From Patescibacteria group bacterium (GTDB lineage: Bacteria > Patescibacteriota > UBA1384 > XYA2-FULL-43-10): 64,000 nt of DNA. The notes beneath the pieces are model-generated. The model was not told the origin of the DNA. It worked only from the letters and a program-made list of their open reading frames with translations, and did not search any database. Of the stretch, positions 20,388-40,186 are shown one piece after another (the stretch's first letter is position 1; the number at the start of each line of letters is the position of its first letter). Where the stretch lies: assembly GCA_041674405.1 (NCBI GenBank), contig JBAYVT010000004.1, forward strand, positions 10,599-74,598. The letters are read 5' to 3'. A program made the translations under genes and the position numbers.

Positions 20388-21659
20388 CTATCCATTTAAA
20401 ATTTTCTTAAGCTTCTTGTCGTCAAGAAAAGGCCCGACAACAGACACCAACATTTTATCAAAGTTGATGTATTTTTTCGCCACCCGTATTACGTCTTTGG
20501 CCGTTACTTCTTCAAATTTGGCAATGACTTCCTCGGGCGCCATGAGCTTTTCATGGATTATTTCCATCCGCATCAGCGATTCTGCCAAATTTTCCGAATC
20601 TTCCATTCCGATCGATATCGCACTTTTCATAAGTTCTTTAGCGCGCTTTATTTCCTCGTCTTTTGGGCCATCTTTGACAATTTTCCGGTATTCATTGATT
20701 ATCGCCCTGGATGCTTTCTCGATATTTTCATGCGCAACATTGGCAAGGGTAACCAGCGACCCAGCATCGGAGTATGCGATGTGCTCAGTCTCAGCTGCAT
20801 ATGCCAGACCTAGTTTTTCTCTTACTTCAACAAACATTCTGGAGCTGGATGATCCGCCCAATATTTCCGCCAAGATTTTAAACGCATATCTATCTTCCAA
20901 ATCCCTGAGTCCAGGACCGGCAAAACCGATTATTAAATTCGTTTGCTCTGTTTTTCTTTGCCCGGAAACCTCTCTTGCAACATCAAGTGTACCCGATGTA
21001 ATAATTTCAGATTTTTTGCCACTTTTCGCTGTAAAATACTTTTCAGCCTCACAGACAACTTTTTCTTCTGTAAGATTGCCAAGGTTACCGCATATGACGA
21101 CCACAATATTCTCGGCAATGTAATGATCCTGCTCAAATTCCAATAGCTCTTCGTGTTTGATTTTTCGCACAGATTCAACGGTGCCTGCAATTCTTCGTCC
21201 AAGTGATTTTTCTGTAAAAATATTTTCTTCGAAAAGTTCAATCACTTCTTCCATTGGTCTATCTTTGTGCATCTTGATATCTTCGATCACAACGTTTTTT
21301 TCGCGGTTAAACTCTTCTTTGGAATTTATCGGATTGATCAAATTATCTGAGAGGTAATCAAGGACCTCAACCAAGTGATCGGAAGATATTTTGACATGAT
21401 AAGCCGTAAGCTCCTTATCGGTATAAGCGTTATAAATGCCGCCGATATCGTTGATAAAGTCGTTCACCTTAGAAGGAGTGGGGCGTTTTTTCGATCCCTT
21501 GAAGCTCATGTGCTCAATAAAATGGGAAACTCCCGACAAATTCTCCGGTTCATACCGGCTGCCGACAGCAACGCCAACCATCACCGCCACCGCATTTGTT
21601 TCTTCCCGTGGGGCAATAATCAGCCGAACTCCATTTTTGAGCGTGTATTTCTTGAACAA
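20388..21659 (-). CDS. M16 family zinc peptidase (pitrilysin/insulinase-like)
   Basis: Inverted zinc motif HFIEHMSFKGS (HxxEH) near the N-terminus; 423 aa. Confidence 0.85.
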   Translation of the reverse strand: MFKKYTLKNGVRLIIAPREETNAVAVMVGVAVGSRYEPENLSGVSHFIEHMSFKGSKKRPTPSKVNDFINDIGGIYNAYTDKELTAYHVKISSDHLVEVLDYLSDNLINPINSKEEFNREKNVVIEDIKMHKDRPMEEVIELFEENIFTEKSLGRRIAGTVESVRKIKHEELLEFEQDHYIAENIVVVICGNLGNLTEEKVVCEAEKYFTAKSGKKSEIITSGTLDVAREVSGQRKTEQTNLIIGFAGPGLRDLEDRYAFKILAEILGGSSSSRMFVEVREKLGLAYAAETEHIAYSDAGSLVTLANVAHENIEKASRAIINEYRKIVKDGPKDEEIKRAKELMKSAISIGMEDSENLAESLMRMEIIHEKLMAPEEVIAKFEEVTAKDVIRVAKKYINFDKMLVSVVGPFLDDKKLKKILNG

Positions 21660-21660
21660 T

Positions 21661-22005
21661 TTATTTCTTCGAATTATTTATGCTTGGCAGATCTGATAGA
21701 GCAATAATATCCAATGCAATTTCTTCGTAAGGATGATTTTCCTTAATGACTTCTAGCGCTTTTTCAATGTCAGATTTAGGACAGATGAATTCCAGTTTCA
21801 CCTCTTCGGCTTCCTCAATTTTTCCAACTTCACCAATCGCCGGATCTGCGCCTTTGAGGGGCCGAAAATATCCTTTGCCCTCTGATATGAATGAACAATA
21901 ATCATAATTGCCCATTTTGCCAATACCGGCTTTGCCGAGAGCAAGTCGTAATTGTTCAATGTGATTTTTTGGCACGAAAACATAGATTTTAACAAATTGA
22001 TTCAT
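21661..22005 (-). CDS. CutA/PII-like small protein
   Basis: C-terminal ALEVIKENHPYEEIALDIIAL resembles the CutA HHPYxxPE region, and the 114-aa size fits a PII-like fold. Confidence 0.45.
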   Translation of the reverse strand: MNQFVKIYVFVPKNHIEQLRLALGKAGIGKMGNYDYCSFISEGKGYFRPLKGADPAIGEVGKIEEAEEVKLEFICPKSDIEKALEVIKENHPYEEIALDIIALSDLPSINNSKK

Positions 22006-22027
22006 GACCTATCTCCTCTTACGGAAA

Positions 22028-22129
22028 GCTCCGCCCGAAAAGTCCCTACGGGGCATTTCCCGACTCCTTCCCGTTTGAATCCCATCAAAAAGTCCAACCG
22101 CATAGCCCGACGAATCGGGCGACGTGGAA
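22028..22129 (-). repeat. Conserved roughly 100-nt element directly 3' of tRNA-Ser(TGA); homologous to 33957..34045
   Basis: Starts TTCCACGTCGCCCGATTCGTCGGGCTATGCGG and continues ...AACGGGAAGGAGTCGGGAAATG.... It shares long identical blocks with the sequence that follows tRNA-Ser(CGA). Confidence 0.6.
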
Positions 22130-22220
22130 TGGCGGAGAGAGTGGGATTCGAACCCACGAGAGCCTTGCAGCCCTACCTGTTTTCAAGACAGGCGCACTAG
22201 ACCAACTATGCGATCTCTCC
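22130..22220 (-). tRNA. tRNA-Ser (anticodon TGA), class II with a long variable arm and encoded CCA
   Basis: Folded by hand: acceptor GGAGAGA/TCTCTCC, anticodon stem CCTGT/ACAGG with loop CTTGAAA, T-arm GTGGG-TTCGAAT-CCCAC. Confidence 0.85.
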
Positions 22221-22221
22221 A

Positions 22222-22314
22222 TGGCGGAAGGTGTGGGATTCGAACCCACGTGGCGGCTTTTAGACCACCGACGGTTTAGCAAACCGTTCCCTTAAGCCTC
22301 TCGGGCAACCTTCC
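22222..22314 (-). tRNA. tRNA-Ser (anticodon GCT), class II with a long variable arm and encoded CCA
   Basis: Acceptor GGAAGGT/ACCTTCC, anticodon stem ACGGT/ACCGT with loop TTGCTAA, T-arm GTGGG-TTCGAAT-CCCAC. It lies 1 nt upstream of tRNA-Ser(TGA). Confidence 0.85.
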
Positions 22315-22438
22315 ATTTACTTGACGATTCTAACAGAAAAATACTCTCGGAGCAACCGTTTTGTGCGCAAAATTCATATCTGGAGTATAATGCAATTATT
22401 GTAATTCTCTCGACTACGCTCGAGATAAAGGAGGCTAT

Positions 22439-22669
22439 ATGAGCGAAGTTAAATTAGGCAAATATAGACATTTCAAAGGCATGATTGTCGATGTCATCGG
22501 CATTGCACTCCACAGCGAAACGATCGAGGAGATGGTTGTTTACAACCACCCCGATCCGGTGAAGGGCAAAGACGCCAATACGATGTGGGTCCGCCCGAAA
22601 GCGATGTTTCTAGAAACCGTTGAGAAAGACGGCAAAACTATCCCGCGATTTGAATACATTGGGGGGTAA
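22439..22669 (+). CDS. DUF1653 family protein
   Basis: KLGKYRHFKG...VIGIALHSETIEEMVVY...WVRPKAMFLETVE matches the DUF1653 pattern. Confidence 0.7.
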   Translation: MSEVKLGKYRHFKGMIVDVIGIALHSETIEEMVVYNHPDPVKGKDANTMWVRPKAMFLETVEKDGKTIPRFEYIGG

Positions 22670-23094
22670 TGCAAACAAGATTTTATAAAAATGAAGATTA
22701 TGAATCTGTCAAATCAATTCTTTCGGAAGCAGATATGTTCGACGAGGTTTGGGATAGCAAACAACATCTCGCAAAAAAGATTCAATTAGAAGCCAAGGGC
22801 ATTCTCTTAGCCGTAGAAAATAAGGAAATCATCGGCTGCATTTATGTAAATCGTAATCCTTGGGCTTGTTTTCTGTATCGGTTAGCAGTGAGAAAACAAT
22901 ATCGCAAAAAAGGGGCAGGAACGCTTTTGATTGAGACTGCTACCAACATGCTGCAAGAGGAAGGTGTTGAAGAAGTCGCAATTTATGTTGATTCCTCGAA
23001 TGAAGATCTTCAAAATTTTTATGAAAAACGCGGATTTATCAAGGGCGGTCTTTATAGATGCATGTATAAAAAGCTTGATGGTGAAGACGAATGA
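22669..23094 (+). CDS. GNAT family N-acetyltransferase
   Basis: Motif A region LAVRKQYRKKGAGTLLIETA with a C-terminal FYEKRGF. The start overlaps the stop of the upstream gene. Confidence 0.75.
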   Translation: MQTRFYKNEDYESVKSILSEADMFDEVWDSKQHLAKKIQLEAKGILLAVENKEIIGCIYVNRNPWACFLYRLAVRKQYRKKGAGTLLIETATNMLQEEGVEEVAIYVDSSNEDLQNFYEKRGFIKGGLYRCMYKKLDGEDE

Positions 23095-24974: not shown

Positions 24975-25050
24975 CGGCCTCTGATTTTGAGTTATGGTAC
25001 GCCCGGCAGGAATTGAACCTGCGACCTTCTGGACCGCAACCAGACGCTCT
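24975..25050 (-). tRNA. tRNA-Arg (anticodon GCG), with encoded CCA
   Basis: Hand fold of GCGCCCGTAGCTCAGTGGATAGAGCGTCTGGTTGCGGTCCAGAAGGTCGCAGGTTCAATTCCTGCCGGGCGTACCA: anticodon loop TTGCGGT, G1-U72 pair, discriminator A. Confidence 0.7.
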
Positions 25051-25145
25051 ATCCACTGAGCTACGGGCGCAAACACGCATTATATTAGCATTATTTTAAG
25101 ATTATTTCTAGACTTTCCACTTTGCACTTTTCACTTGAAACTATT

Positions 25146-27436: not shown

Positions 27437-28816
27437 ATGGAAATTAAAGCTGGGTTTTTGAAAAAAATCAGTCTAGTTCTCTCGATTTTGCTTTTAGCCA
27501 TTCTTACATCAGGGTGCTCCATAAGATCTACGGGCACAACAGAATCAAAAGTTATAACCATATGGGGCTTTGAAGATGAGGATACTTGGAAGCCAACAAT
27601 AGACGAACTATCCCAAGGAAGCCTAAACGGATACGAAATAAACTACGTCAAAAAAACTCTCGACGCCAACTATGAGAATGATTCTTTGAATTCAATTATG
27701 TCTGGCCAAGGGCCAGATGTTTGGGCCATGCCAGCAGATTGGGTTTATCGACACAAAGACAAGCTGGCACCCATGCCAGATGATATGTTGAAAGACATTG
27801 ACCTGGATAATAAATTCGTCCCAGCCATCAAACAATCTCTTGATTTTGACGGGAAGCTTTATGGGCTTTCGCCGGTTGTTAACACCTTAATGCTGTATAT
27901 AAACAAATCAGTTACCGCCCAAGTTCTTTCCGAATTTAATCAATCCGATGCCGCGACTAATGCCGAACAAGCCGATAAGGTAAATACTCTCCTAAACTCA
28001 ACTCCGCAGACCTGGACCGAATTTGCCGACTTTGCAAATCTTGTTACCAAGAAAAATGGCGACCAAATTGTAAGAAGCGGTGTTGCCCTGGGTACAAGCC
28101 AGAACGTCACGATCTCCGAAGACCCTCTGTATGCGATGATGCTCCAAAATGGCACAGCCATGACATCTAACGACTTGCAAACCGCTACGTTTAACTTGCC
28201 TTCTTCGGGAGGATCAGACATACCGGGAAAAAGAGCTCTAGACTTCCTTGCAAGTTTTTCCAAACCGGGTTCTGCCAACTATTCCTGGAATGGAAGCATG
28301 CCGAAAGACATCGAGGCATTTGCAACCGGCAAAACTGCGATGGTATTTGCGTATGAATCTTTTGCGAATTACATGGATCAAAATTACCCAAATGTTGAAT
28401 ATTCACAGTCGGCCCTTCCTCAAATTGGCGGGGCAGATGAAAAGATTGTGGATTTTGCGCGATTTAACGCCTTGGTGGTACCAGGATTAACAAAGTTTCC
28501 ACAAGAGGCATGGGAAGTTGTTTCTGCTGTTTCTACCGAACATGCTACCGATTTTTCTAGTGCACTAAAAATTACGACTTCACAAAAAGACAATGCTATG
28601 ATCAAAGTCCTGAAAGACCGGGCGGGAAACTCTGACGTCGGCAGCTTTCAGGCCCAAACCGCTGTTACATGGAACAAGGGGAGGTACCCACTAAATATCG
28701 ATAGCATTTTTACAACAATGATCAACAATGTTTCGTCAAGCGGACAAGATACAAAAGCCGCTCTCGACACAGCAGCATCACAGGTTACGCAAATATTAAG
28801 AAAAACCACATGGTAA
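27437..28816 (+). CDS. Lipoprotein: extracellular solute-binding protein (ABC family 1, sugar type), orphan with no permease nearby
   Basis: Lipobox LTSGCS followed by a MalE-like TIWGFEDEDTWK...GKLYGLSPVVNTLMLYINKS pattern. Confidence 0.6.
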   Translation: MEIKAGFLKKISLVLSILLLAILTSGCSIRSTGTTESKVITIWGFEDEDTWKPTIDELSQGSLNGYEINYVKKTLDANYENDSLNSIMSGQGPDVWAMPADWVYRHKDKLAPMPDDMLKDIDLDNKFVPAIKQSLDFDGKLYGLSPVVNTLMLYINKSVTAQVLSEFNQSDAATNAEQADKVNTLLNSTPQTWTEFADFANLVTKKNGDQIVRSGVALGTSQNVTISEDPLYAMMLQNGTAMTSNDLQTATFNLPSSGGSDIPGKRALDFLASFSKPGSANYSWNGSMPKDIEAFATGKTAMVFAYESFANYMDQNYPNVEYSQSALPQIGGADEKIVDFARFNALVVPGLTKFPQEAWEVVSAVSTEHATDFSSALKITTSQKDNAMIKVLKDRAGNSDVGSFQAQTAVTWNKGRYPLNIDSIFTTMINNVSSSGQDTKAALDTAASQVTQILRKTTW

Positions 28817-29169
28817 AAATCAAAAAAACAAAAAAAACTGCTTTAATTTTCGCCGCCACCACATTGATCTCTGTGCTGCCCGGGTTTGCCAGCGCATTTA
28901 CCACCGGAGTTGCAATAAATGGCAAAACAACTTTCTCCAGTTATATGGACTGGATGAAATCAATTTTTGGCTTTGCCATGAAACTTGGAGCGGTTTTAAC
29001 TACCCTAATGATACTCTATGCCGCAATCAAATATATCACCTCGCAAGGCAATTCTAGTGCTACCAATGAAGCAAAGGACATAATTATCGGCAGCCTGTCC
29101 GGCTTCGCCATGCTGCTTCTCATTTATTTAATTCTTAATGTTTTGGGGCTAAAAAGCTTTGCGTTTTAG
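28810..29169 (+). CDS. VirB2/TrbC-like pilin-module protein 1 (signal peptide plus two hydrophobic helices)
   Basis: 119 aa with a signal-like N-terminus and two helices separated by a short polar loop (ITSQGNSSATNEAKD). The architecture is shared with 31374..31685, 31769..32086 and the C-terminus of 29179..31377. Confidence 0.5.
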   Translation: MVKIKKTKKTALIFAATTLISVLPGFASAFTTGVAINGKTTFSSYMDWMKSIFGFAMKLGAVLTTLMILYAAIKYITSQGNSSATNEAKDIIIGSLSGFAMLLLIYLILNVLGLKSFAF

Positions 29170-29178
29170 TTAGTTAAA

Positions 29179-31377
29179 ATGAAAAGTTATAAATTCATAA
29201 AATCCATTTCTCGATACCTCATAGTTTTTGCTGTTTTTGCAACCGCTACCTCCGCCATGGTTTTTGCTGTGCAAAATAACCAGGTGGGCGCGGACACAAC
29301 AACAGGTGTCAATTCCGCTGCCACTTCTGGAACAAGCAGCACGGGAGTCTCATCCGGAAAGGATTCCTCAGACGCTAAAAAAACTATTTCCGCTACCCCT
29401 AACTACAAAGTTGTTAAGTCATCTTCCGGTACCTCCGCCAAGATGGTCTTGGTTTCGGTCACAAATGAAGAAATTACTGGAGCTGATTATACAAACTCCA
29501 CCACCAGCTATGGCATTACAAAATCCAAAGACAGCGCTACATGCGAAAACATACTTTCCCTTGATGAATATTGTTACATTTTGACCTACAACCAAGAGTG
29601 GATCAAGCCTTCGGTCATTGATCCGATAAGCCCATCCTGGATATTTCTTGAAGAAATAAAGGGCCGCGCGACCACAGCAAGTGACTCATCTTCTCTCACC
29701 ATTATTAACAATGCCGAAGCCAGTTTTGCTTCGACTGCGCTCCAGAAATGGGACGGAGTAGATCTCTCGCAAATATCTCAGGGCGACGGGCAGATTATCA
29801 TTCGATCAGAGGCTTTTTTCGATGCACTTGACGCAGATAAATTGACCTCAACCGGGTCTTATGTCACCTATTCGGCACCACAAGACAAGAAAACCTCCAG
29901 TGGAACAACTTCGAAACAGCTCATTGTGAAACTGGCACCAGCGTATCCGGATGCAAAAGCTGAATCGCTATGGATGGACGCAATTGATTTCACTTTGGGA
30001 TCTGTAATTATCCCCTGGCAAGAAACCTTTCATGTGGATTTGTCGGACAAAAAATTAGCGCTTGAGAATCATCGAAAGGCATATGCAAACTATGCTGATG
30101 TGGCATCGTCAAAAACAGATGTGAACGGAACAGCCTTGAAAATTTCCGGCCCGCAAAAAATCATTATTGGCACCGATGGCTCGGCAAAAACAGACGGCGG
30201 TTTCAGTGTCACCATTGATCCTACCAAATTTACCAAACCCGAGAGAGGATACAAAACCCAGGTGTATATTAAGCCAACTGTCAAAAATGGGGATGCTGTT
30301 TTCACTTATTTACAATCTACCGATCCGGCCGCAACGTCATTTCCCTTTACTTGGTCTGCGATTGCCACAAATCCTTATGCCACCTCTATTCTCGCCGATG
30401 GTTCAGTAAAAACATATGACGATAGTGAGATCAAAGCTAATGGAATAATGTCTTACGAAAAAAATTATCCGCAGTCATACACCGTCACCGCCATCACATA
30501 CAATCAAGATGATTCGGAAAAAGAGAGAGTCGTTATGACTTTCGATACGATCGGCGATTCTTCATTTACCGAAGCACCGAAGGTTGGTTCGGGCAATATC
30601 ACAAATGGGCATATCTCGATTTCTGTCCCACAAAACACATTCACTAAAGCTGACAGGCAGCCAGTTCATTACACGATTCAGCTCGCAGATACAAACAATC
30701 CTAAAAAAATGAAAAAGATTGTTGTCTGGACATGCGGAGGAACAGCATCTGCAACAATAGCAGGGGATTCAAGCAACTGCGTCGGCACAGGAAATATCGA
30801 GCAAACAATCGCTGCATTTATAATGAGCGACATTCGCCCAGCCGACAAGCCAACCTGGAAAGAACTTGCATATGATGAAAACGGAGAGGCTACTCTTCAG
30901 GGCGATTGGGATATTTCGGGTACAAATGTCGGCACATTTTCCTTGATGGCCAAGGCACATAGTGCCAATTCGGATGATTCGGGCGGTATGGCTTCATATG
31001 TTCCCGGCAGCAAAGTTGCCGTCACCGTGAGCATAACCGATTCGAAACTCAATGATGGAGGTGGTTTAGATACTAAGTTTACCGACCTCCTCAAGCTCGG
31101 GAAAAAAGCATCATCAAATGCCAGAGGGTCTTCAATTACAGACTTAACAGGGGCAGCCACCAGGGTTGTAAATATAATTTTGTCTGCCCTCAGTGCGATT
31201 TGCGTGTTGGCAATAATAATCGGCGGAATACAATACATCTCATCAGGGGGAGATCCGGCCAAAGCTGAAAAGGGCAAAAAAACTGTTATCTATGCTGTTT
31301 ATGGAATCGTTTTAGCAATATTAGGATTTTTTATTGAATATGTGGTTATTGACTTAATTCACCAAATACTAAAATGA
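29179..31377 (+). CDS. Large Ser/Thr-rich surface protein with a C-terminal VirB2/TrbC-like pilin module (candidate pilus-tip or adhesin fusion)
   Basis: N-terminal signal anchor and a roughly 640-aa ectodomain. The last roughly 80 aa (VVNIILSALSAICVLAIIIGGIQYISSGGDPAKAEKGKKTVIYAVYGIVLAILGFF) align in pattern with the neighbouring small pilins. Confidence 0.55.
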   Translation: MKSYKFIKSISRYLIVFAVFATATSAMVFAVQNNQVGADTTTGVNSAATSGTSSTGVSSGKDSSDAKKTISATPNYKVVKSSSGTSAKMVLVSVTNEEITGADYTNSTTSYGITKSKDSATCENILSLDEYCYILTYNQEWIKPSVIDPISPSWIFLEEIKGRATTASDSSSLTIINNAEASFASTALQKWDGVDLSQISQGDGQIIIRSEAFFDALDADKLTSTGSYVTYSAPQDKKTSSGTTSKQLIVKLAPAYPDAKAESLWMDAIDFTLGSVIIPWQETFHVDLSDKKLALENHRKAYANYADVASSKTDVNGTALKISGPQKIIIGTDGSAKTDGGFSVTIDPTKFTKPERGYKTQVYIKPTVKNGDAVFTYLQSTDPAATSFPFTWSAIATNPYATSILADGSVKTYDDSEIKANGIMSYEKNYPQSYTVTAITYNQDDSEKERVVMTFDTIGDSSFTEAPKVGSGNITNGHISISVPQNTFTKADRQPVHYTIQLADTNNPKKMKKIVVWTCGGTASATIAGDSSNCVGTGNIEQTIAAFIMSDIRPADKPTWKELAYDENGEATLQGDWDISGTNVGTFSLMAKAHSANSDDSGGMASYVPGSKVAVTVSITDSKLNDGGGLDTKFTDLLKLGKKASSNARGSSITDLTGAATRVVNIILSALSAICVLAIIIGGIQYISSGGDPAKAEKGKKTVIYAVYGIVLAILGFFIEYVVIDLIHQILK

Positions 31378-31685
31378 TGCATAAAATTATTTCTATCGCT
31401 ATGGCTGCGGATGACCTTAAGCTGCCGGAGAAATCTGGTGGCACAGAGGCTGATCTTGGCACTGTTCTTGGCTTTCTTGAAAAAATTATTTCTATTGCCA
31501 TGGATATCGCCATAATCCTCGGTGTTATTATGATTTTTGTTTCCGCCTTTATATATGCAAGCTCTTTCGGCGAAGAATCCAAGGCAGAAACTGCCAAAAA
31601 GACTCTTTTGTGGGCAGTTATCGGAACAGGCGTAGCATTCTTGGCAAAGATTATTGTTGACAACCTTGATCTGCTTTTGGGTTAG
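31374..31685 (+). CDS. VirB2/TrbC-like pilin-module protein 2
   Basis: 103 aa with the two-helix module IILGVIMIFVSAFIYASSFGEESKAETAKKTLLWAVIGTGVAFLA. Its start overlaps the stop of the upstream gene. Confidence 0.5.
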   Translation: MMHKIISIAMAADDLKLPEKSGGTEADLGTVLGFLEKIISIAMDIAIILGVIMIFVSAFIYASSFGEESKAETAKKTLLWAVIGTGVAFLAKIIVDNLDLLLG

Positions 31686-31768
31686 CGCATCAATAATGTT
31701 ATTTGACAAGCAAAAAATATGTGCTTAAAATTGTTCTTAGTGGACTTAAATAATAAGACGGAGGGCGA

Positions 31769-32086
31769 ATGAATTTAGTAGAAAAGGCGTACGCGGTTAG
31801 CAAAAACCAGTGGACTGGTTTGCTAAACCCAACAGCCACCACTTCGGGAAACTGGCAAGATATTGTTAATAACGTTATTAACATTGTCTTGATGGTAGCT
31901 GGTGCATTAGCGGTTATTTATCTAATCTATTCTGGCATTCTCTACATTACTGCGGCAGGTAATCCGGATTCAGCCAAAAAGGGTCAGCAAGGCATTATCA
32001 ATGCTGTGATCGGTATTGTGATCATCGTTGCCGCATTCTTCATCGTCAGAGCAGCAATGGGTCTTGCTGGGCAAGCTACAAAATAA
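31769..32086 (+). CDS. VirB2/TrbC-like pilin-module protein 3
   Basis: 105 aa with VINIVLMVAGALAVIYLIYSGILYITAAGNPDSAKKGQQGIINAVIGIVIIVAAFF. It has its own TTGACA...TTAAAAT promoter and a GGAGGG Shine-Dalgarno. Confidence 0.5.
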   Translation: MNLVEKAYAVSKNQWTGLLNPTATTSGNWQDIVNNVINIVLMVAGALAVIYLIYSGILYITAAGNPDSAKKGQQGIINAVIGIVIIVAAFFIVRAAMGLAGQATK

Positions 32087-32096
32087 GATCAATTGG

Positions 32097-33761
32097 TTAA
32101 TCTTTCGTTACGCGCCAGACTTCTTCTGCAGTCGTAACGCCCGATAAAACTTTTGAAAGTCCGTCCTGTTCCATGGTAATCATGCCTGAAGACAGGGCGG
32201 CTTTTGTAAATTCCGAGAGTCCGGCTTTTTCGAATAATAGTTTATCGATTGACTCGTTTGGAACAAGCACTTCAATAATTACTTGCCGGCCAGAAAACCC
32301 GACATTTCTACATTTTCCACATCCTTTTCCGCGTTTTAGCTTGGGAGCGGCACTTGATAACAAATTTTGGGATGCAGGATCCAATAATTTTTGAATAGGC
32401 AACAAAGAGTCTTGAATTTCTTTCCAGACTTCAGGGCTGGGAGTATATTCCTCGGCACAAGCCGGGCATATTCTGCGCACGAGCCGCTGAGCCATAACCA
32501 AGTTTATTGATCCTGACAAGAGGAATGGTTTTACGCCAATATCAAGCAATCGGACAAAAACTCCGGGTGCAGAGTTGGCGTGAATAGTAGAGAGCAGCAA
32601 ATGGCCCGTCATGGCAGCCTGTATCGCAATTTCCGCCGTTTCGGTGTCTCTTACCTCCCCTACCATTAAAATGTCAGGATCTTGGCGCAGAGAGGCTCTA
32701 AGACCCAAGGCGAAGGTATATCCCTCCTCTTTTTCAACCTGGCTCTGCTCCACACCGGGAATGTGATACTCGACAGGATCCTCAAGAGTGATTATTTTTA
32801 CATTTGACTTATTGAGCTCATGTAAAATTGCATAAAGCGTAGAGGATTTACCTGAACCGGTCGGTCCAGAAGTTAGAATCATCCCATGCGGCTTCGAAAT
32901 TGCTGCCTCGATTACAGATAGCGCATCGGGCCTTATGCCCAAGTTCTTTAGGCTCAAGATTGACCCAGTTTGGCGGAGCAATCGGATTACAACGCTCTCT
33001 CCGTCAGCTGAAGGTAAGGTAGACACTCTTAAATCGATTGGCTCCTCTCCAAACTTGAAAGAAAACCTGCCGTCCTGCGGTTCGATGGCATTATCCATTT
33101 TTAGTTTCGATAAAAATTTTATTCTGGATAAAAGTGACTTATACTGGGACATCGGAAGAGACACGACGTTTTGCAAAACCCCGTCAATTCTGTATCGAAT
33201 AATGAATTCTTTTTCTGTCGGCTCAAGGTGGATATCTGATGCATTTGTTTTTGCTGCTCCGGTCATAATTACCTCGAGGAGATGGGTAGTTGATACGCTT
33301 CTGGCGACACTGGCAGCTGATTCTAAATCTTTAATCTCTTCCGTAAAGTTTTGCCCGGATTCTTTCGTTTCTTCGGCTTTCTTTTTTTCCTCTTTTTCTT
33401 TGTTTTCATAAGCCAGAATGCCGTAAAACAGGCTTGCTTTCGAAATTAATGATTTCACAAATTTCAATTTCGATGTTCTCTCAAGCTCGGCTAGATAAGA
33501 TGCCATGGCATCATCCGAAGGGTTGGCTGTGCCAATTTTTACCGTAGACCCGATCTTTAAGTAAGGAATAATTTGAAACCTCAAGGCGATTTCCTTTGAA
33601 ATCAAATTTAAAATCTCCGGCGCAATCGGATAATTTGAGAGATTTATATATGGCAAATTCAGCTTTTTTGCCAATTCTTGGGTATGTCTCTCCTCCTGCT
33701 CGCGGTTGAGGTAAAAAATTGTCTTATTAAGATCAGGCAAGTTCCCTCCGGTCAAAAACAA
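32097..33761 (-). CDS. pilB: Type IV pilus / type II secretion family assembly ATPase (PilB/GspE)
   Basis: GspE N-terminal domain, Walker A LTSGPTGSGKSS, Asp/His boxes (GEVRDTETAEIAIQAAMTGHLLLSTIHANSA) and a C-terminal tetracysteine CPAC...CGKC. Confidence 0.85.
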   Translation of the reverse strand: MFLTGGNLPDLNKTIFYLNREQEERHTQELAKKLNLPYINLSNYPIAPEILNLISKEIALRFQIIPYLKIGSTVKIGTANPSDDAMASYLAELERTSKLKFVKSLISKASLFYGILAYENKEKEEKKKAEETKESGQNFTEEIKDLESAASVARSVSTTHLLEVIMTGAAKTNASDIHLEPTEKEFIIRYRIDGVLQNVVSLPMSQYKSLLSRIKFLSKLKMDNAIEPQDGRFSFKFGEEPIDLRVSTLPSADGESVVIRLLRQTGSILSLKNLGIRPDALSVIEAAISKPHGMILTSGPTGSGKSSTLYAILHELNKSNVKIITLEDPVEYHIPGVEQSQVEKEEGYTFALGLRASLRQDPDILMVGEVRDTETAEIAIQAAMTGHLLLSTIHANSAPGVFVRLLDIGVKPFLLSGSINLVMAQRLVRRICPACAEEYTPSPEVWKEIQDSLLPIQKLLDPASQNLLSSAAPKLKRGKGCGKCRNVGFSGRQVIIEVLVPNESIDKLLFEKAGLSEFTKAALSSGMITMEQDGLSKVLSGVTTAEEVWRVTKD

Positions 33762-33866: not shown

Positions 33867-33956
33867 GGTGAGGTGCTAGAGTGGTTGAATAGGCCGGTCT
33901 CGAAAACCGGTATGCCCGCAAGGGTATCGTGGGTTCAAATCCCACCCTCACCGCCA
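33867..33956 (+). tRNA. tRNA-Ser (anticodon CGA), class II with a long variable arm and encoded CCA
   Basis: Acceptor GGTGAGG/CCTCACC, anticodon stem CCGGT/ACCGG with loop CTCGAAA, T-arm GTGGG-TTCAAAT-CCCAC. Confidence 0.85.
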
Positions 33957-34045
33957 TCCCACGTTGCCCGATTTATCGGGCTATGCGGGATGAAGAACAG
34001 AATTTGAACGGGAAGGGGTCGGGAAACGGGAGTTTCCCGCTTCGG
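33957..34045 (+). repeat. Conserved element directly 3' of tRNA-Ser(CGA); homologous to 22028..22129
   Basis: TCCCACGTTGCCCGATTTATCGGGCTATGCGGG...AACGGGAAGGGGTCGGGAAACGGGAGTTTCCCG. The first 32 nt are nearly identical to the element after tRNA-Ser(TGA). Confidence 0.6.
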
Positions 34046-34108
34046 AAAAAACTAAAAACCGAGGGTTTTTAGAAGCTTGTCTCGAGGAACCGAGAGGCGA
34101 AGCGCTCG

Positions 34109-34129
34109 AAATCCCACCCTCACCGCCAT
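34109..34129 (+). repeat. Perfect 21-nt duplicate of the 3' end of tRNA-Ser(CGA) (T-loop through CCA)
   Basis: AAATCCCACCCTCACCGCCAT occurs at 33937..33957 inside the tRNA and again here, 150 bp downstream, at the edge of a GC-rich island. Confidence 0.7.
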
Positions 34130-34199
34130 TTGACGAGTTTATATCTCCAACTGAAAAAGCCGGCGCAAACTTCACGCCGACTTTTTAGTTCCTCACCTC

Positions 34200-34919
34200 C
34201 TATTTCACCGCGCAGATTATGTCGTAGTTGGGCTCTGCCGCAAGGTTTGGTCTCAAGACTCTCTTCACCCCTAGCCCCCGAACAAGCCCTTCCATTTCGT
34301 TTGGCGCAAGCAAATACGAAAGTGAGCGGTTCTGGAACTGCTGCCCGCGAACGATACCCTTCCCCTCTATCACCCGCGTTCGCCGAAACCAATCGTGGGT
34401 GATGTCAACCGCCATGCTGTAGCCGAGGAAGGAAAGGTTCAGGTGACCACCACCCTGATCAATCTCGTGCTGTGAGATCGTGTCGAGGTAGAGAAGTCCG
34501 CCGCTTTTTAAGGCAGCGAGCATTTCTTTTAGGCTTCTTCCGATCTCCATGCGACACCGACCAGGATCGAAGATATCGCCCTTCCCCCAGCCCCCCACGT
34601 TTGTTAAGCTGTTACCTCTGCATATCACAGCGTCGAAAGTCCTGGCCAGCTCGCGAGCCTTCCGCCAATCCAGTTTGCGAAACTCAATCGCCGGATGGCT
34701 GTGGCGAGCAGTGGCGATGTCGATCATCTCTTCGTCCGCATCGATCCCGACCCCTGTAAAGCCGCGCTCTGCTAAACCGTGCAGCACATGCCCACCGCCG
34801 CATCCACACTCGATGATTGTTCTGACGCCGAGTTCCCGCAGTAAATCCGCTAGTTCTTTGATGAACTCCGAGCCATACATCAGCTCGGACAAGATTACCC
34901 ACTGCTGTGACAGAGTCAC
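34200..34919 (-). CDS. Class I SAM-dependent methyltransferase in a GC-rich (about 57%) island
   Basis: Motif I IIECGCGGGHVLHGLAE and motif II GVGIDADEEM. A terminator hairpin lies downstream, and the gene overlaps the upstream gene by 4 bp. Confidence 0.75.
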   Translation of the reverse strand: MTLSQQWVILSELMYGSEFIKELADLLRELGVRTIIECGCGGGHVLHGLAERGFTGVGIDADEEMIDIATARHSHPAIEFRKLDWRKARELARTFDAVICRGNSLTNVGGWGKGDIFDPGRCRMEIGRSLKEMLAALKSGGLLYLDTISQHEIDQGGGHLNLSFLGYSMAVDITHDWFRRTRVIEGKGIVRGQQFQNRSLSYLLAPNEMEGLVRGLGVKRVLRPNLAAEPNYDIICAVK

Positions 34920-35560
34920 GTGCCTTCAACCTCCTTCATCATGATCACTCGCAGGCCTCCTGTTGCTGCGTCCTCCGGAATAAAATCCGGAGCTATCCAG
35001 AGAAACTTACCCCCAAGCCGGTAGTAGAAGGCCAAGAGCGGGTCGAGGCAAAGTTCGCGATCAGTAGGAAAGGGCCCTCCCGCGAGATGTCGATCTATCG
35101 CCTCCTTGAACGCGGGCCTTTGTCTAATCCCTTCTCTTGGGCTTCCATTGTAGGAGGCCGGCCTCCCGTCAGCTATTCCAAGGATGCAACCATCCGACTT
35201 AATTCGACCAAGCATAGCTTGCGCCAGTAATACTGCTGTGCGGGCATTGCGATACTTATCCTGCACGTTGAGGTTGTAGACGAAGGCACAATCATGGCTG
35301 GTCTCCATCGGCATCGTCGAGAACTCCCCAAAGTTTCTGGAAAATGCTTTGGGATCACTCGGATAAAACCGGGAGTAGGAAAAGCAGATTTTCCCAACCA
35401 GCTCCCCGTCCAGTCTGGCCCCAAGCATGATGTGTCCAAGGCGCAGCCGCTGCTCGATCAGCTCACGGCTGGCGCGCAGATAGGGCGGGAACGACAGGTT
35501 CTCGTCTTCGAGGATTTCGTCCAAATCCTCGAAAGACAACTCGACTATCATCGTGTCCAT
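34916..35560 (-). CDS. Putative GNAT-like acyltransferase in the GC-rich island (start at MDTM, with AGGAGG 7 nt upstream)
   Basis: GC-rich coding begins at the internal Met; upstream of it, the 45 codons of the longer ORF are AT-rich and unlikely to be coding. AFVYNLNVQDKYRNARTAVLLAQAM resembles a GNAT motif A region. Confidence 0.45.
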   Translation of the reverse strand: MDTMIVELSFEDLDEILEDENLSFPPYLRASRELIEQRLRLGHIMLGARLDGELVGKICFSYSRFYPSDPKAFSRNFGEFSTMPMETSHDCAFVYNLNVQDKYRNARTAVLLAQAMLGRIKSDGCILGIADGRPASYNGSPREGIRQRPAFKEAIDRHLAGGPFPTDRELCLDPLLAFYYRLGGKFLWIAPDFIPEDAATGGLRVIMMKEVEGT

Positions 35561-35710
35561 AATGTCTCGCCTCCTTTGGATTCTTCGAAACAAAAAATTA
35601 TCCCTCCGTCTTGGCAGGATGTCAATAATTTGCACAGGGATTTTGTTAGTGATATCCTTTAATCGAGATTGTTTTATTAAAATGTTGTCAAAGTTTTTCA
35701 CAAATAAGTT

Positions 35711-36469
35711 ATGAACTTACAGGCAATTTTAGAGGAATTCGGGCTTTCCAAACGCCAGGCCAGCGTCTATCTGGCAAATTTGGAGTTGGGAGAGGCGAGT
35801 GTTGCTCAAATTGCCGAAAAAGCTCAAATCGAGCGTACTGGCACCTACTACGTTATAGAATCGCTGTGCGGCAAAGGCCTTATCGTCGAGATTGAGCGAG
35901 GCAAAAAAGATTTTTTTGTCGCCATCGAGCCAAAAGAGCTGCTATCAATTGCAAAAAGAAGAGAAAAGTTGATATTAGAACACCTGCAGGAATTTGAGGC
36001 CTTTTCGAATATCTCCTCGGAGAAACCTCATGTCCGCCTTTACACCGGAATCAACGGAATAAAAACGGTTTTTTTAAAAACAATTGAGAAACCAAAAATA
36101 CAGATGCTGGGCTTTTCACCCTACAGAACAGCCGAGAAAACCGCCTGGTACAACGGCAAAGAGTATGTGGAATGGGGTTTGGACTATATCAGGAAACGAG
36201 CCTCCAGAAGGATTTTCGCTCGCACCATCGCTGAAGATACACCGGAATCACAAGCGCGCAAGGGGAGAGACGCTGAAGAACTGCGGGAAACACGTCTGGT
36301 TCCACACGATAAATTCCTGTTCACCAACGAAATAGCCATCCTCGACGATTGGGTCGCGGTAATTTCATACAAAGAGATGGCTGCGCTTGTAATTGAATCA
36401 AAAGAATTTACTAAAACAATGAGATCAATTTTTGAACTAGCATGGGATGGAGCGGAAAAATATTTGTAG
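35711..36469 (+). CDS. TrmB-like HTH transcriptional regulator (paralog of 9357..10115)
   Basis: EEFGLSKRQASVYLANLELGEASVAQIAEKAQIERTGTYYVIESL at the N-terminus, and about 252 aa like its paralog. Confidence 0.6.
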   Translation: MNLQAILEEFGLSKRQASVYLANLELGEASVAQIAEKAQIERTGTYYVIESLCGKGLIVEIERGKKDFFVAIEPKELLSIAKRREKLILEHLQEFEAFSNISSEKPHVRLYTGINGIKTVFLKTIEKPKIQMLGFSPYRTAEKTAWYNGKEYVEWGLDYIRKRASRRIFARTIAEDTPESQARKGRDAEELRETRLVPHDKFLFTNEIAILDDWVAVISYKEMAALVIESKEFTKTMRSIFELAWDGAEKYL

Positions 36470-37116: not shown

Positions 37117-37629
37117 CTACTGCTTGTTTGATTTTTTCGGTTTAATTACAATTCTTCTGTCTTGGCCGGTACCGATTGATTCTGATTCTACATCGGCAAT
37201 ATTGGAAACAACCATGTGCACAATCCTTCTTTCGTATGAAGACATTGGGCTTAGCTCTTCGGATATTCCCGTGGCAAGCACTTGAAATGCTTTTTCCCGT
37301 GCATGTTTTTTGGTGCCTTCAATCCTTTTGTCGCGATATCCGTCTATGTCAATAACCAGAGATTTGTTGTGCTGAGCGATTTCCTTTCCCATTATTGAGC
37401 GCAGAATATGCTGAAAAGACTCCAAGCCCTCCCCCCCTTTGCCAATTAGCAGAGCCGGCGATTCTAGGTTGAAGTTCATAAAAACTATATTGTCTTTAAA
37501 TGTAACAATGGGATCAGCATCAAAGCCCATTAGGTCTAGGAGATTTTTTGAGTTGTCTTTAATTTTTAGGATCAATTCTTCCATTCTTGTCCTTCGATTT
37601 AAGTCTGCTGCAAAAGAATAATACCGCAC
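37117..37629 (-). CDS. khpB: Jag/KhpB RNA-binding protein (KH plus R3H domains)
   Basis: KH-like IGKGGEGLESFQ and R3H ELSPMSSYERRIVHMVV. It sits in the conserved position after yidC. Confidence 0.8.
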   Translation of the reverse strand: MRYYSFAADLNRRTRMEELILKIKDNSKNLLDLMGFDADPIVTFKDNIVFMNFNLESPALLIGKGGEGLESFQHILRSIMGKEIAQHNKSLVIDIDGYRDKRIEGTKKHAREKAFQVLATGISEELSPMSSYERRIVHMVVSNIADVESESIGTGQDRRIVIKPKKSNKQ

Positions 37630-37658
37630 CCACCCAATTGAATCAATGCCCGTGCCGG

Positions 37659-38543
37659 CTATTTCTTTTCGCGTATGGTAATCGACACGCCTTTTTTCTT
37701 GTCCTGTTTATCAAGCCGGCCCTGCATTACCTTTGTCATTAAGTCTTTTTTTGCTGGTTTTTCGGCTTTATTTTCTTTGGGTTCATCAATCTGTACAGGA
37801 CTTAATTCAGCCGAATTTTCGTTTTTAGTTTTTAGTTTTTCGTTCCGGATGTTTGTATTCACGTAATACTGCTGGCCGATGCTAAAAATTGTAGTGATAA
37901 TCCAGTAAATCACCAAAGCCGCGGGAACAGACCGGGCGATGAAAATGGTGATTAGGGGAAAAAGAAATATCATCTGTTTGTTCATCATTGCCATCGGATC
38001 ATTCTTTTGTGTAGGAGAAGCCTTTGGAAGAGTCATCCACGAAAGTAACATCTGCGTGGCACCGGCAATAATCGGCAGAATCCACAAATCGTGCAGTGCC
38101 AGATTAAACCCTAAAAATACCGTGTGCAAGGCTTCTGGGCGCGGCGTAAAGGAGTACAAAAGGTCATACCGAGAAGTATCAAGGCCGATTTGGAATACTT
38201 GATATAGAATAATGATGATTGGAAGCTGAATTAAGAGAGGCAAACACGAGCCCCAAGGGGACGTCCCCTCTTCTTTGTAGAGCCTCATCATTTCCTCATT
38301 CATTTTTTTCGGATCATCTTTGTGTTTCGTCCTGATTTCATTCATCTTTGGCTGAACCGCTTGCAGCTTTACACTCGCTTTTGCCGCCTTAAGGGAGCTT
38401 GGCAACAGAATCAAACGGATAATGATCGTTAAAATGACAATAGACCAACCCACAGAACCGCCCGTTGCCCATGCGAAAAAGATTAGAAGATTATAAAACG
38501 GAATATAGAGCACTGCTCTAAAAATTTCTTTAATAAAACTCAT
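37659..38543 (-). CDS. yidC: Membrane protein insertase YidC (short Gram-positive-like form)
   Basis: ILTIIIRLILLPSSLKAAKASVKLQAVQPKMNEI...GSCLPLLIQLPIIIILYQVF is the YidC/Oxa1 core. Confidence 0.88.
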   Translation of the reverse strand: MSFIKEIFRAVLYIPFYNLLIFFAWATGGSVGWSIVILTIIIRLILLPSSLKAAKASVKLQAVQPKMNEIRTKHKDDPKKMNEEMMRLYKEEGTSPWGSCLPLLIQLPIIIILYQVFQIGLDTSRYDLLYSFTPRPEALHTVFLGFNLALHDLWILPIIAGATQMLLSWMTLPKASPTQKNDPMAMMNKQMIFLFPLITIFIARSVPAALVIYWIITTIFSIGQQYYVNTNIRNEKLKTKNENSAELSPVQIDEPKENKAEKPAKKDLMTKVMQGRLDKQDKKKGVSITIREKK

Positions 38544-38681
38544 TAAGTTCCTTATTGTTACATTGCTAAATGGTTAAATTGTTATTTTTCAAGTTTGTCA
38601 TTTGTATATTTTATCAAGTAATTTATTGATCGCGGAAGCTTTTGTAAGTGCTCCAAAAATAAAACAATTTAACAATGCGGG

Positions 38682-38915
38682 CTATTTGACTTCGTCAATT
38701 CCGCCACCACTCCATGGATTACATCTTAAAACGCGCCAAAACGCAAGTGCAAGGCCCTTTCCGGCCCCGTATTTCATCACCGCTTGGCGGCCATATTCCG
38801 AACAATGCGGAGTATATTTGCAATATCCGCCTGAAAATCTTGCCGAAAACCAACCGGTGTCAGGAGACAATGTCCGCTGATATAATTCAATAATTTTTAT
38901 AACAATCTTTTTCAT
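38682..38915 (-). CDS. yidD: Membrane protein insertion efficiency factor YidD
   Basis: YQRTLSPDTGWFSARFSGGYCKYTPHCSEYGRQAV...RVLRCNPWSGGGID matches the YidD pattern. Confidence 0.88.
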   Translation of the reverse strand: MKKIVIKIIELYQRTLSPDTGWFSARFSGGYCKYTPHCSEYGRQAVMKYGAGKGLALAFWRVLRCNPWSGGGIDEVK

Positions 38916-39253
38916 TTAATTACATTTGCTCTTTTTAAGCCCTCTATTATCTGTAGTTTAATTTTTCCGTAATTATATGGCAGGGGAAAGTCTTGTTTAA
39001 CCATAATCGCTACATCAAAGCCTTGGTTTATCTGTGGCCAAGTTTCTTGCACAATGGCTCTCAGGCGTCTTCGAAGGGCATTGCGGCGGCTTGCCCTTTT
39101 ATCAATCTTGTTTGAAACAACAAATCCAAACCGGGATTTGTCCCGCCCCTTTGCAACACGAAAAACGAGGTTTTCTGTATAAATCGGTTTGGATGATTTA
39201 AAAATCTTCTGAAAATCTTTATTGGTTCGAAGTCTGTTTTGTTTTGGAAGCAT
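38912..39253 (-). CDS. rnpA: RNase P protein component
   Basis: MLPKQNRLRTNKDFQKIFKSSKPIYTENLVFRV...SRRNALRRRLR matches the RnpA pattern. It overlaps yidD by 4 bp. Confidence 0.88.
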   Translation of the reverse strand: MLPKQNRLRTNKDFQKIFKSSKPIYTENLVFRVAKGRDKSRFGFVVSNKIDKRASRRNALRRRLRAIVQETWPQINQGFDVAIMVKQDFPLPYNYGKIKLQIIEGLKRANVIK

Positions 39254-39355
39254 GAGCCGATTTTAGCACAAATATGAGCTTAATACGAATAAACACAGAG
39301 ACAGCCACCTCGATGCGAGATGGCTGCCCTGAAAGTCCCTCCAGGTTGTTGGTCG

Positions 39356-39868
39356 CTAGAAGCGGCCGATGTTGTACTGGGCGCAGACGCTGTCGTCCTG
39401 CCCATCCACGCAGAGCCGGTATAGCCCTGATGCGCGGCCGGACTTCCAACAGAACTGGATGGTCTGGTAGGGCTTGCACCCCGCCTGGTATTTCACATAC
39501 CCCATCGCATCCAGGCCCCTCACGATCTTGACCGGCGGCGTCGTAACGTCCGCCCGCCACGGGTCGTATCCCCACACACGAAGACACGAATTCCAGGGGT
39601 TGACCTCGGCGCCGAGCCTCAGCCGCTCATTGTCCGTCCTGGCAAGCCAGAGGACATCGGCCGGCTTGTACCCTGCCATCAGCAGAGTGTAGGGCCCGTC
39701 CACCTGCTGTTCGGCGTAGAACCACGCCGAACCGCGAGCAACGGTCACGGTTGCAGCCGTGTACTCGCCTTGGACGAACACACCCGGAGACACCGACACC
39801 TCGTCCGCGAAAGCGACCGAGACGGACAAAGCCAACATTGCGATCAGAACAGCGGTAATAGCGCGCAT
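39356..39868 (-). CDS. Secreted Cys-containing hypothetical protein encoded by a GC-rich (about 62%) single-gene insert between rnpA and rpmH
   Basis: Signal peptide MRAITAVLIAMLALSVSVAFA. AGGAGG lies 7 nt before the ATG, with a TTGACA-15-TATATA promoter upstream and a GC hairpin terminator downstream. Confidence 0.55.
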   Translation of the reverse strand: MRAITAVLIAMLALSVSVAFADEVSVSPGVFVQGEYTAATVTVARGSAWFYAEQQVDGPYTLLMAGYKPADVLWLARTDNERLRLGAEVNPWNSCLRVWGYDPWRADVTTPPVKIVRGLDAMGYVKYQAGCKPYQTIQFCWKSGRASGLYRLCVDGQDDSVCAQYNIGRF

Positions 39869-40048
39869 GTTTGCGCCTCCTGTACCCGAAATTGTACGCC
39901 TGATACCGACAATTCAATATATACTATTTCTCATCAATTGTCAATCTTCTCGAGCACAAAAAAAGAACCCGTGGGGCTCCCAAATACATGATTAAATGGT
40001 TATATTATTATTCTCAACAATTTAGCAATACAGCAATTTAGCAATTTA

Positions 40049-40186
40049 TTAGGCTGAAAGTTTCGCTCTGCCTTTCGCTCGGCGGTTTGCAAGAACATTT
40101 CTGCCGGCACGAGAAGCCATGCGCGAGAAAAACCCGTGTTTCTTTGCCCTTCTTCTTTTGTTTGGTTGGTATGTGCCTTTTTTCAT
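40049..40186 (-). CDS. rpmH: Ribosomal protein L34
   Basis: [45 protein letters not shown] matches L34. The listed 97-aa ORF extends far upstream of the true Met. Confidence 0.85.

Follow-up and report, generated by a model that had tools for sequence, protein, structure and literature searches.

A conserved hairpin one base past the CCA end of two serine tRNA genes in a Patescibacteria genome, with copies after alanine and proline tRNA genes in other lineages

The 64-kb stretch of Patescibacteria DNA analysed in this study (the window) forms part of a 158-kb metagenome contig (ENA ERZ27247358 k141_1092591) and was found to contain four tRNA genes by ARAGORN and Rfam. On the minus strand, tRNA-Ser(GCT) (22222..22314; Rfam tRNA score 53.6 bits) was followed after a gap of 1 nt by tRNA-Ser(TGA) (22130..22220), whose CCA is encoded at 22130-22132, and tRNA-Arg(GCG) was present at 24995-25070. 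On the plus strand, tRNA-Ser(CGA) was present at 33867..33956, with an encoded CCA. The trailer of tRNA-Ser(TGA) on the minus strand (copy S1) and that of tRNA-Ser(CGA) on the plus strand (copy S2) were found to share two conserved blocks, of which the first is a hairpin that recurs, at the same distance from the CCA, after other tRNA genes in distant lineages of the candidate phyla radiation (CPR).

Pairwise alignment showed that the sequence shared by S1 and S2 starts immediately past the encoded CCA. Block 1 reads (T/C)CCACGT(C/T)GCCCGATTNNTCGGGCTATGCGG and was found at 22098-22128 (minus) and 33958-33988 (plus), and block 2 reads ATTYRAACGGGAAGGNGTCGGGAAA and was found at 22056-22080 (minus) and 34002-34026 (plus). 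Each pattern matched twice in the 64 kb, and dinucleotide shuffles expect 0.00-0.01 matches. The near-identity of the two flanks directly 3' of the CCA, which a first-pass annotation of the window had reported together with a GCCCGA/TCGGGC hairpin, was thus confirmed by alignment and shuffles, and the hairpin is real. That annotation had put the element at 90-100 nt; the similarity was borne out but the length was not, as the two trailers are unrelated past block 2 and the common part is about 75 nt by alignment. The blocks were identical at 48 of 55 positions, against 6 of 19 in the spacer between them (Fisher p ~1e-5, with block limits set post hoc), which argues that the blocks are constrained and are not parts of a decaying duplicate. 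Taken with their trailers, the two tRNA-Ser genes form a 107-nt, 81% inverted repeat (I1) whose arms lie 11.7 kb apart. A search of the window with the covariance model R1, filters off, gave no further copy of block 1.

Block 1 is an imperfect-palindrome hairpin of 28-37 nt that always begins one base past the encoded CCA. In S1 it has the form UCCACGUC-GCCCGA-UUCG-UCGGGC-UAUGCGG (R1 55.7 bits, E = 2e-12), and in S2 the form CCCACGUU-GCCCGA-UUUA-UCGGGC-UAUGCGG(G) (R1 58.7 bits, E = 4e-13). The outer stem pairs CC(C)-A-CGU with AUG-C-GG(G), with an A.C mismatch and a G.U pair that are both conserved; next come a conserved C/U.U mismatch and the inner stem GCCCGA/UCGGGC. The 4-nt loop was UUCG in S1 whereas it was UUUA in S2. 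Hairpin energies ranged from -11 to -27 kcal/mol. No U-tract follows the stem of block 1 as it would in an intrinsic terminator, and the only terminator-like site near S2 is a separate hairpin at 34052-34072.

In S1 the hairpin is followed by a spacer (22081..22097, minus) that has diverged from S2, and then by block 2 in the form AUUCAAACGGGAAGGAGUCGGGAAA, which is common to S2 only (AUUUGAACGGGAAGGGGUCGGGAAA in that copy) and was also picked up as an inverted pair (I2, 25 nt, 88%). Block 2 pairs with different partners in S1 and S2, so its conservation is one of sequence, with no helix in common. The S2 trailer was more stable than its shuffles (z = -3.2), mainly through hairpins private to S2. 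No Rfam 15 family matched the trailers at the gathering threshold, which only the tRNAs passed. Weak hits at E up to 10 rode on the tRNA, with sX4 at 25.9 and 18.5 bits (threshold 70) and Yfr1 at 18.7 and 17.3 bits (threshold 38), and these as well as plastid matches were rejected as tRNA-driven. A divergent signal recognition particle (SRP) RNA, suggested by a GGAAGG motif, was ruled out, since no Rfam SRP family matched even at E up to 10. Pairing of the 3' arm of block 1 with the tRNA 3' end, as judged by eye, was weak for the serine tRNAs and absent for the alanine and proline tRNAs described below.

Past block 2, the distal S1 trailer (22006..22055, minus) is unlike S2 and forms the leader of a co-oriented gene of 114 aa (21661..22005, minus), ending in the ribosome-binding site AGAGGAG. 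The gene product resembles the C-terminal part of YqfO/NIF3 (the YqfO family name comes from one source) and was 71% identical to a protein from a Candidatus Berkelbacteria metagenome-assembled genome. A promoter-like site was found at 22413-22384 (minus), upstream of tRNA-Ser(GCT), the first gene of the unit, and neither a promoter nor a terminator was found between the tRNAs and yqfO; a terminator scan of 21600-22700 was empty. The tRNAs and yqfO therefore probably share one transcript, of the likely order tRNA-tRNA-trailer-yqfO-peptidase M16-ndk. An AUG inside block 1 of S1 opens an open reading frame (ORF) of 36 codons (22098-22005, minus), the stop of which overlaps the yqfO start (ATGA). 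This ORF is probably noncoding, because its counterparts in the other four copies vary in length and frame. A small conserved peptide starting at the AUG of block 1 was ruled out, as S1 and S2 read block 2 in different frames and no two of the five copies have the same ORF.

At S2, the last 20 nt of tRNA-Ser(CGA), from the T-loop through the CCA, together with the next nucleotide (33937..33957, plus; repeat family D2, 100%) were found to recur as an exact 21-nt copy at 34109..34129 (plus). The repeated 21-mer is AAATCCCACCCTCACCGCCAT; this duplication of the tRNA 3' end had been noticed in the first pass and proved to be exact. Since the repeat ends at CCA+1 and block 1 begins there, the 151 nt between the repeats (33958-34108) look like an insert whose edge falls on the first base of block 1. 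No ORF was present in the 151 nt. An empty site would read as the CCA+T of tRNA-Ser(CGA) joined straight to TTGACGAG. Apart from the two blocks, the insert contains an S2-specific hairpin (34020..34039, plus) that overlaps the end of block 2 and is predicted by folding as CGGGAAAC-GGGA-GUUUCCCG, followed by the A/U-rich hairpin CUAAAAACCGAGGGUUUUUAG (34052..34072). The latter scored as a terminator of the methyltransferase operon, which converges from the minus strand, and transcription of tRNA-Ser(CGA) probably ends there as well. A possible pseudo-tRNA, resembling an anticodon arm, upstream of the second repeat was not significant (236 of 2000 shuffles scored equally).

S2 faces the converging methyltransferase gene (34200-34919). 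The GC content of 34001-36000, a segment that starts just past S2, was 0.51 against a window mean of 0.44, and this segment, which holds the methyltransferase, a weak GNAT-like ORF and a TrmB-type regulator, may be foreign DNA adjoining the tRNA. Same-strain contigs from other assemblies (Logan SRR6484325, JGI 3300037067) were found to end in or near the repeats formed by tRNA-Ser and its trailer; two of the contigs (L002, L003) start in the tRNA T-arm, and another (L042) ends near window position 34010, inside block 2. Those ends are consistent with repeat-induced assembly breaks.

A scan of 241 million metagenome records, anchored on the tRNA T-loop and the 5' arm of block 1, gave three further copies with an exact core, on contigs L046, L047 and L048. 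In L046, tRNA-Ala(TGC) is followed by C-CCCACGTCGCCCGAC-GCAT-GTCGGGCTATGTGGGG; in L047, tRNA-Pro(TGG) by A-CCCACGTCGCCCGA-ATAAA-TCGGGCTATGCGGG; and in L048, tRNA-Ala(GGC) by T-CCCACGTCGCCC-GAA-GGGCTATGCGG. The first-pass annotation had described the element as one of tRNA-Ser genes, which did not hold, as the same hairpin stands at the same 1-base spacing after these alanine and proline tRNAs and is absent after the tRNA-Ser genes found at yqfO in relatives. In all five copies the hairpin was complete and exactly one base lay between the CCA and (C/T)CCACG; in the three metagenome copies the palindrome is preceded by RCCA and one base. The loop varied between 3 and 5 nt, and in L046 the inner stem has 7 bp, so that its stem-loop insert is 6 nt longer, and the A.C mismatch has become an A-U pair. 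Several features were conserved although the search pattern did not force them, namely the uridine in the G.U pair and the one facing the C/U mismatch, as well as a UG 2-3 nt past the helix. Ten of the 13 stem pairs were invariant and the other three deviated only by unpaired cells.

A second hairpin was found directly after block 1 in L046, L047 and L048. That of L046 (GCCACCC...GGGUGGCUUUUU) is a canonical intrinsic terminator and that of L047 fits one partly; between L047 and L048 the second hairpin shows one compensatory pair (GUCCC/GGGAC against GUCCA/UGGAC). The window is Berkelbacteria-like, L046 Microgenomates-like and L048 Parcubacteria/Paceibacteria-like, these being the two of the three metagenome contigs that were placed in a lineage, and GC content ranged from 0.41 to 0.54. 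The LUD protein of L046 had relatives that were 93% (P0214) and 83% (P0215) identical to it. Four of the five copies had a co-oriented gene 30-150 nt downstream, and the complete hairpin was found close to housekeeping genes, 124 nt from yqfO in S1 and 77 nt from leuS in L048. The module followed two of the four tRNAs in the window, one of four in L047 and one of three in L058. Without a forced tRNA context, R1 found both window copies, each linked to a tRNA, and none elsewhere in about 120 kb of carrier-genome sequence; with filters off, it found one copy in 18 kb of L058.

Outside these carriers the searches were negative. No true copy was found in 185,579 reference genomes with the exact pattern and a fixed 4-nt loop; the reference genome scans gave 0 matches at first and then 27 chance matches in high-GC genomes, none of them beside tRNA-Ser. 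The first metagenome scan, which required both blocks, gave 0 matches, and exact-pattern scans of a viral collection gave only chance matches in coding regions.

The loci orthologous to those of S1 and L048 were found to lack the module in relatives. At the yqfO locus of relatives with YqfO proteins 61-76% identical to that of the window, a tRNA-Ser precedes the gene in several lineages, the trailers are unrelated, and R1 found no block 1. At the leuS locus, the 77 nt that separate tRNA-Ala(GGC) from leuS in L048 consist of block 1 and the second hairpin, whereas L053, with an identical tRNA and a LeuS 80% identical, has a different trailer of 104 nt in which the first hairpin is another one and a 3' part resembling the second hairpin is kept. 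In L055 and L056 (LeuS 67% and 64% identical) the tRNA ends 9 nt ahead of the leuS start. The first-pass annotation had counted absence from related genomes as evidence against the element; the element was absent from the nearest relatives, yet present in distant CPR lineages. A near-invariant 30-nt sequence that occurs in distant lineages and is missing from close relatives at the same locus points to horizontal spread or insertion and not to vertical descent under constraint.

The tRNA-Ser before yqfO was found to differ in its anticodon among the genomes, with TGA in the window and L033, GGA in L032 and L050, and CGA in L036-L039 (a tRNA-Ser is carried in both L033 and L034). Those differences could reflect a reshuffling of the locus through recombination between paralogous tRNA-Ser genes or between the trailers. 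The trailer of L053 (1397-1500) begins with the hairpin GCCAC-AATAAATC-GTGGC, the loop of which equals the loop region of block 1 in L047 (GAATAAATCG). This hairpin overlaps an alternative one, GTGGCTT...AAGCCAC. This trailer may be a diverged member of the family, and R1 gives it no score at E up to 1.

The explanation that we tentatively favour, while rating it at somewhat under an even chance, is that the shared trailer is a small module of the tRNA 3' flank that arrived by DNA insertion or exchange and then came to serve as the trailer of the tRNA. Such a module would spread horizontally among CPR/Patescibacteria, with block 1 as its invariant core followed by a lineage-specific second part, which would be block 2 in the window and the second hairpin in L046-L048. 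It would reach a tRNA by insertion or replacement at the 3' end of the gene and not by descent with the tRNA, and S2 would still bear the signature of the event, with 151 nt between 21-bp duplicates and the inner edge at the first base of block 1. Candidates for its means of spread are a trans-acting site-specific recombinase, a GIY-YIG cassette of the homing type, and uptake by transformation with recombination at the conserved T-arm.

Once in place, the module would form the trailer of the tRNA transcript. A stable stem one base past the CCA is not removable by 3' exonucleases alone, which implies an endonucleolytic cut at the CCA. In Escherichia coli, RNase E cuts immediately 3' of the CCA of proK, proL and proM and removes the terminator (PMC5291269), and the trailing hairpin of leuX is removed by PNPase or RNase P (PMC2811032). 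We infer a comparable cut here, which would leave the downstream RNA, that of yqfO in the window and of leuS elsewhere, with a 5'-terminal hairpin as a structured boundary. We propose that it is because of this boundary or cut role, abutting the CCA, that the hairpin has stayed intact while the adjoining spacer decayed. A trailer-processing or terminator role for block 1, which had been among the first suggestions for the element, is a plausible candidate.

A further and bolder form of the same idea, which we regard as possible but doubtful, is that block 1 represents an unrecognised class of miniature mobile CPR DNA that inserts one base past the CCA of any tRNA gene, is mobilised in trans by a recombinase or rides with small GIY-YIG cassettes, and keeps the tRNA functional by bringing its own trailer hairpin. 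A mobile module would amount to a miniature element with site specificity for the one feature that all tRNA genes have in common, and could serve to trace gene flow among CPR lineages that are deeply separated yet found in the same samples. An RNA signal would instead offer a way into tRNA 3' maturation and the separation of tRNA from mRNA (yqfO, leuS) in bacteria with reduced genomes. Contigs from three other assemblies end in or beside the elements, so the repeat appears to fragment CPR assemblies at tRNA genes.

Several results weigh against an inserted module that acts as a trailer. Flanking repeats were found at S2 only, that is at one of the five copies, and none at S1, L046, L047 or L048 within 4 kb. 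No strain without the S2 insert was found, the contigs with the neighbouring proteins being of the same strain and breaking at the repeat. No gene for an integrase, transposase, recombinase or GIY-YIG protein was found in the 64-kb window by a Pfam scan of most ORFs of at least 100 aa, and no intact parent element was found in viral, phage and plasmid collections, the phage and plasmid BLAST searches giving no match. On the RNA side, the whole S1 trailer was no more stable than its shuffles (z = -0.4), none of the 13 stem pairs of block 1 changed on both sides, the 5' arm being fixed by the search pattern, and the sense and antisense strands folded about equally well. Absent covariation and equal antisense folding give no direct evidence that RNA structure matters, and the choice of strand from folding energy was uninformative. 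With five copies known, three of them found by a pattern that required an upstream tRNA T-loop and the exact 5' arm, the size and variability of the family and its exclusivity to tRNAs outside the window are poorly sampled.

Block 1 could instead be a host RNA motif without mobility, a stem-loop of the trailer whose sequence a processing enzyme or an RNA-binding protein recognises. It would act in tRNA 3' maturation, as a 5' stabiliser of the downstream mRNA after removal of the tRNA, or as a stable trailer small RNA (sRNA), and would be gained and lost by mutation and gene conversion. The E. coli sRNA 3'ETS-leuZ, derived from a tRNA trailer, is an analogy for such a motif. The fixed distance from the CCA, the completeness of every hairpin, the conservation of the blocks and of unpaired and G.U positions beside a diverging spacer, the co-oriented downstream gene in four of five copies (at S1 without an intervening promoter or terminator) and the cut at the CCA that removes a terminator in E. 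coli (PMC5291269, PMC2811032) all fit it. However, vertical descent does not predict a motif that is missing from the orthologous trailers of the nearest relatives and near-identical in three CPR lineages after different tRNAs, and a general signal should be commoner than three exact-core copies in 241 million records, with one or two tRNAs per carrier locus. It also lacks covariation and leaves the 21-nt repeat of S2 unexplained, and we consider it rather unlikely. We judge it unlikely, too, that the trailers are remnant attL-side arms of larger, deleted integrase-driven elements, with block 1 as a terminator of the element or a protein-binding palindrome beside the core of the attachment (att) site, a possibility that had been raised in the first pass. 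This account fits the exact repeat at S2, as a repeat from the T-loop to CCA+1 is what an att core of the T-loop type predicts, and it agrees with short 3'-end repeats downstream of other CPR tRNAs (tRNA-Leu of L058 and tRNA-Ser(GGA) of L050) and with the raised GC content at 34-36 kb (0.51 against 0.44). Integration of the Ms6 type into the T-loops of tRNA-Ala genes, with retargeting by a changed attP core, has been documented (PMC1762012), and tRNA fragments left behind by integration are common (PMC9897764). The account agrees badly with other results: no integrase was found among the scanned ORFs of the window, only 151 nt lie between the repeats, four of five copies are repeat-free, and nothing matched in the viral, phage and plasmid collections. 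Random deletion should have truncated hairpins, yet all five are complete, two of them (S1 and L048) only 124 and 77 nt from housekeeping genes, yqfO and leuS, whose linkage to the tRNA is ancestral.

We take it to be quite improbable that the module is the 5' leader of a small GIY-YIG nuclease gene, in a cassette homing to the 3' flank of tRNA genes, with the ORF lost from the window copies. SegB of phage T4 is a GIY-YIG homing endonuclease that acts in a tRNA gene cluster. In L047, block 1 and the second hairpin lie directly upstream of a GIY-YIG ORF, the ATG of which follows the hairpin by 9 nt, and GIY-YIG ORFs flank tRNA-Ser and yqfO in the relatives L031, L049 and L050, where upstream modules carry CCGCCATTCGAC. 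But L047 is the only one of the five copies with such a neighbour, the leaders in L031, L049 and L050 contain no block 1, and tblastn with five GIY-YIG proteins as queries gave no match in the window with E below 0.3. Those putatively mobile proteins, 80-85 aa long, have no domain besides the catalytic one. Finally, the two serine tRNAs are paralogues with nearly identical T-arms, so the similarity of S1 and S2 could have been left over, without constraint, from an old duplication that took in a tRNA-Ser gene and its flank, or could have been a chance likeness of two GC-rich terminator hairpins. This is effectively refuted, as the shuffles expect no match, the contrast between blocks and spacer is not neutral, and the hairpin follows alanine and proline tRNAs elsewhere.

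In comparison with known systems, block 1 resembles the Rho-independent terminators that abut the CCA in E. coli (proK/proL/proM and leuX; PMC5291269, PMC2811032) in being a GC-rich stem-loop a few bases past the CCA for which a cut is needed. Like them, L046 and L047 have a second, terminator-like hairpin with a U-run. Unlike them, block 1 lacks a U-tract, keeps its sequence across different tRNAs and CPR lineages and has two conserved internal mismatches. We know of no terminators that are shared in this way between unrelated genes. The tRNA scars and att sites of tyrosine integrases (Ms6, PMC1762012; PMC9897764) are like S2 in their repeat starting at the T-loop, in the foreign sequence right after the tRNA and in a presence that varies among relatives. 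They differ in that the S2 insert is 151 nt with neither integrase nor cargo, four of five copies are repeat-free, and the same flank occurs on five tRNA species.

Repetitive extragenic palindromes (REPs), bacterial interspersed mosaic elements (BIMEs) and the palindrome-associated transposable elements (PATEs) derived from IS200/IS605 are noncoding, lie downstream of genes and consist of a short imperfect palindrome of about 30-35 nt in which mismatches are conserved. Block 1 is similar to REPs and PATEs as a conserved palindromic core next to variable sequence. A PATE would have subterminal hairpins at both ends and a cognate TnpA or RAYT in the genome; two adjacent hairpins were seen in L046-L048. 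In contrast to REPs and BIMEs, only two copies were found in 64 kb, both linked to tRNAs, with no RAYT or TnpA seen in the window, and no HUH transposase was found among the Pfam-scanned ORFs. A strict position at CCA+1 is, to our knowledge, not described for REPs, BIMEs or PATEs. Of the traits of REPs and of miniature inverted-repeat transposable elements (MITEs), the imperfect palindrome is present and terminal inverted repeats are not, and the 21-nt duplication is too long for the target-site duplication of a transposase. The distal repeats of E. coli tyrT are units of about 170-180 bp, each containing the last ~19 nt of tRNA-Tyr, in tandem at one locus. S2 is likewise a unit closed by a duplicate of the tRNA 3' terminus; it is, however, a single insert, and its hairpin is common to unrelated tRNA loci and genomes. 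With sRNAs from the 3' external transcribed spacer (3'ETS) such as 3'ETS-leuZ, the module shares a conserved trailer, probably co-transcribed with a tRNA, that could persist as a small RNA; no pairing target was found for this candidate. We regard the module as an undescribed variant. It lacks a testable defining feature of each of the tRNA-abutting terminators, the att scars and the REP/PATE palindromes.

Small selfish DNA evidently tends to land at the 3' flank of tRNA genes in CPR bacteria, since small inserts bounded by a duplicated tRNA 3' end, but differing in sequence, were found at other loci. In relatives, tRNA-Ser(GGA) trailers were found to consist of repeated modules that start with CCGCCATTCGAC (the tRNA-Ser 3' end and 6 nt) and include GCTCATGGTCTTCGACCA hairpins; their last bases, ...ATCGAAGGGC, lie immediately ahead of small GIY-YIG ORFs. 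These modules were present in L050 (925-1252), L049 (148-317), L031 (2888-3057) and L032 (2361-2460), and the L031 module keeps its tRNA-end fragment although no tRNA gene is present. In L058 (3400-3532, minus), a small insert bounded by repeats adjoins tRNA-Leu(CAA): a hairpin resembling a terminator comes first, and next the tRNA's own T-arm and 3' end in inverted, slightly deleted form. The same tRNA has a 12-nt direct repeat of its 3' end (CCTTGCCCACCA) about 125 nt downstream, in sequence unrelated to block 1. A toxin-antitoxin pair of MNT (NTP_transf_2) and HepT lies directly upstream of yqfO in L033 (1849-2479), L034, L035, L051 and L052; in the sequence analysed, a tRNA-Ser upstream of the pair is present only in L033 and L034, and the same interval contains S1 in the window.

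Elsewhere in the window, the minus-strand genes jag(R3H)-yidC-rnpA, with rnpA at 38912-39253, and the plus-strand genes dnaA-dnaN-recF were found within 37117-44822, a layout from which the window likely spans the region of the replication origin. A single ORF of 2429 aa was present at 46378-53667 on the minus strand. Four ORFs with pilin domains of the type IV secretion system (T4SS; TrbC/VirB2-like) were found in 28810-33761, adjoining an ATPase of the type II secretion system/type IV pilus type (32097-33761), and a TraG/VirB4-like P-loop ATPase was found at 57106-58965. These T4SS-pilin ORFs and ATPases are typical surface or DNA-transfer machinery of CPR bacteria.

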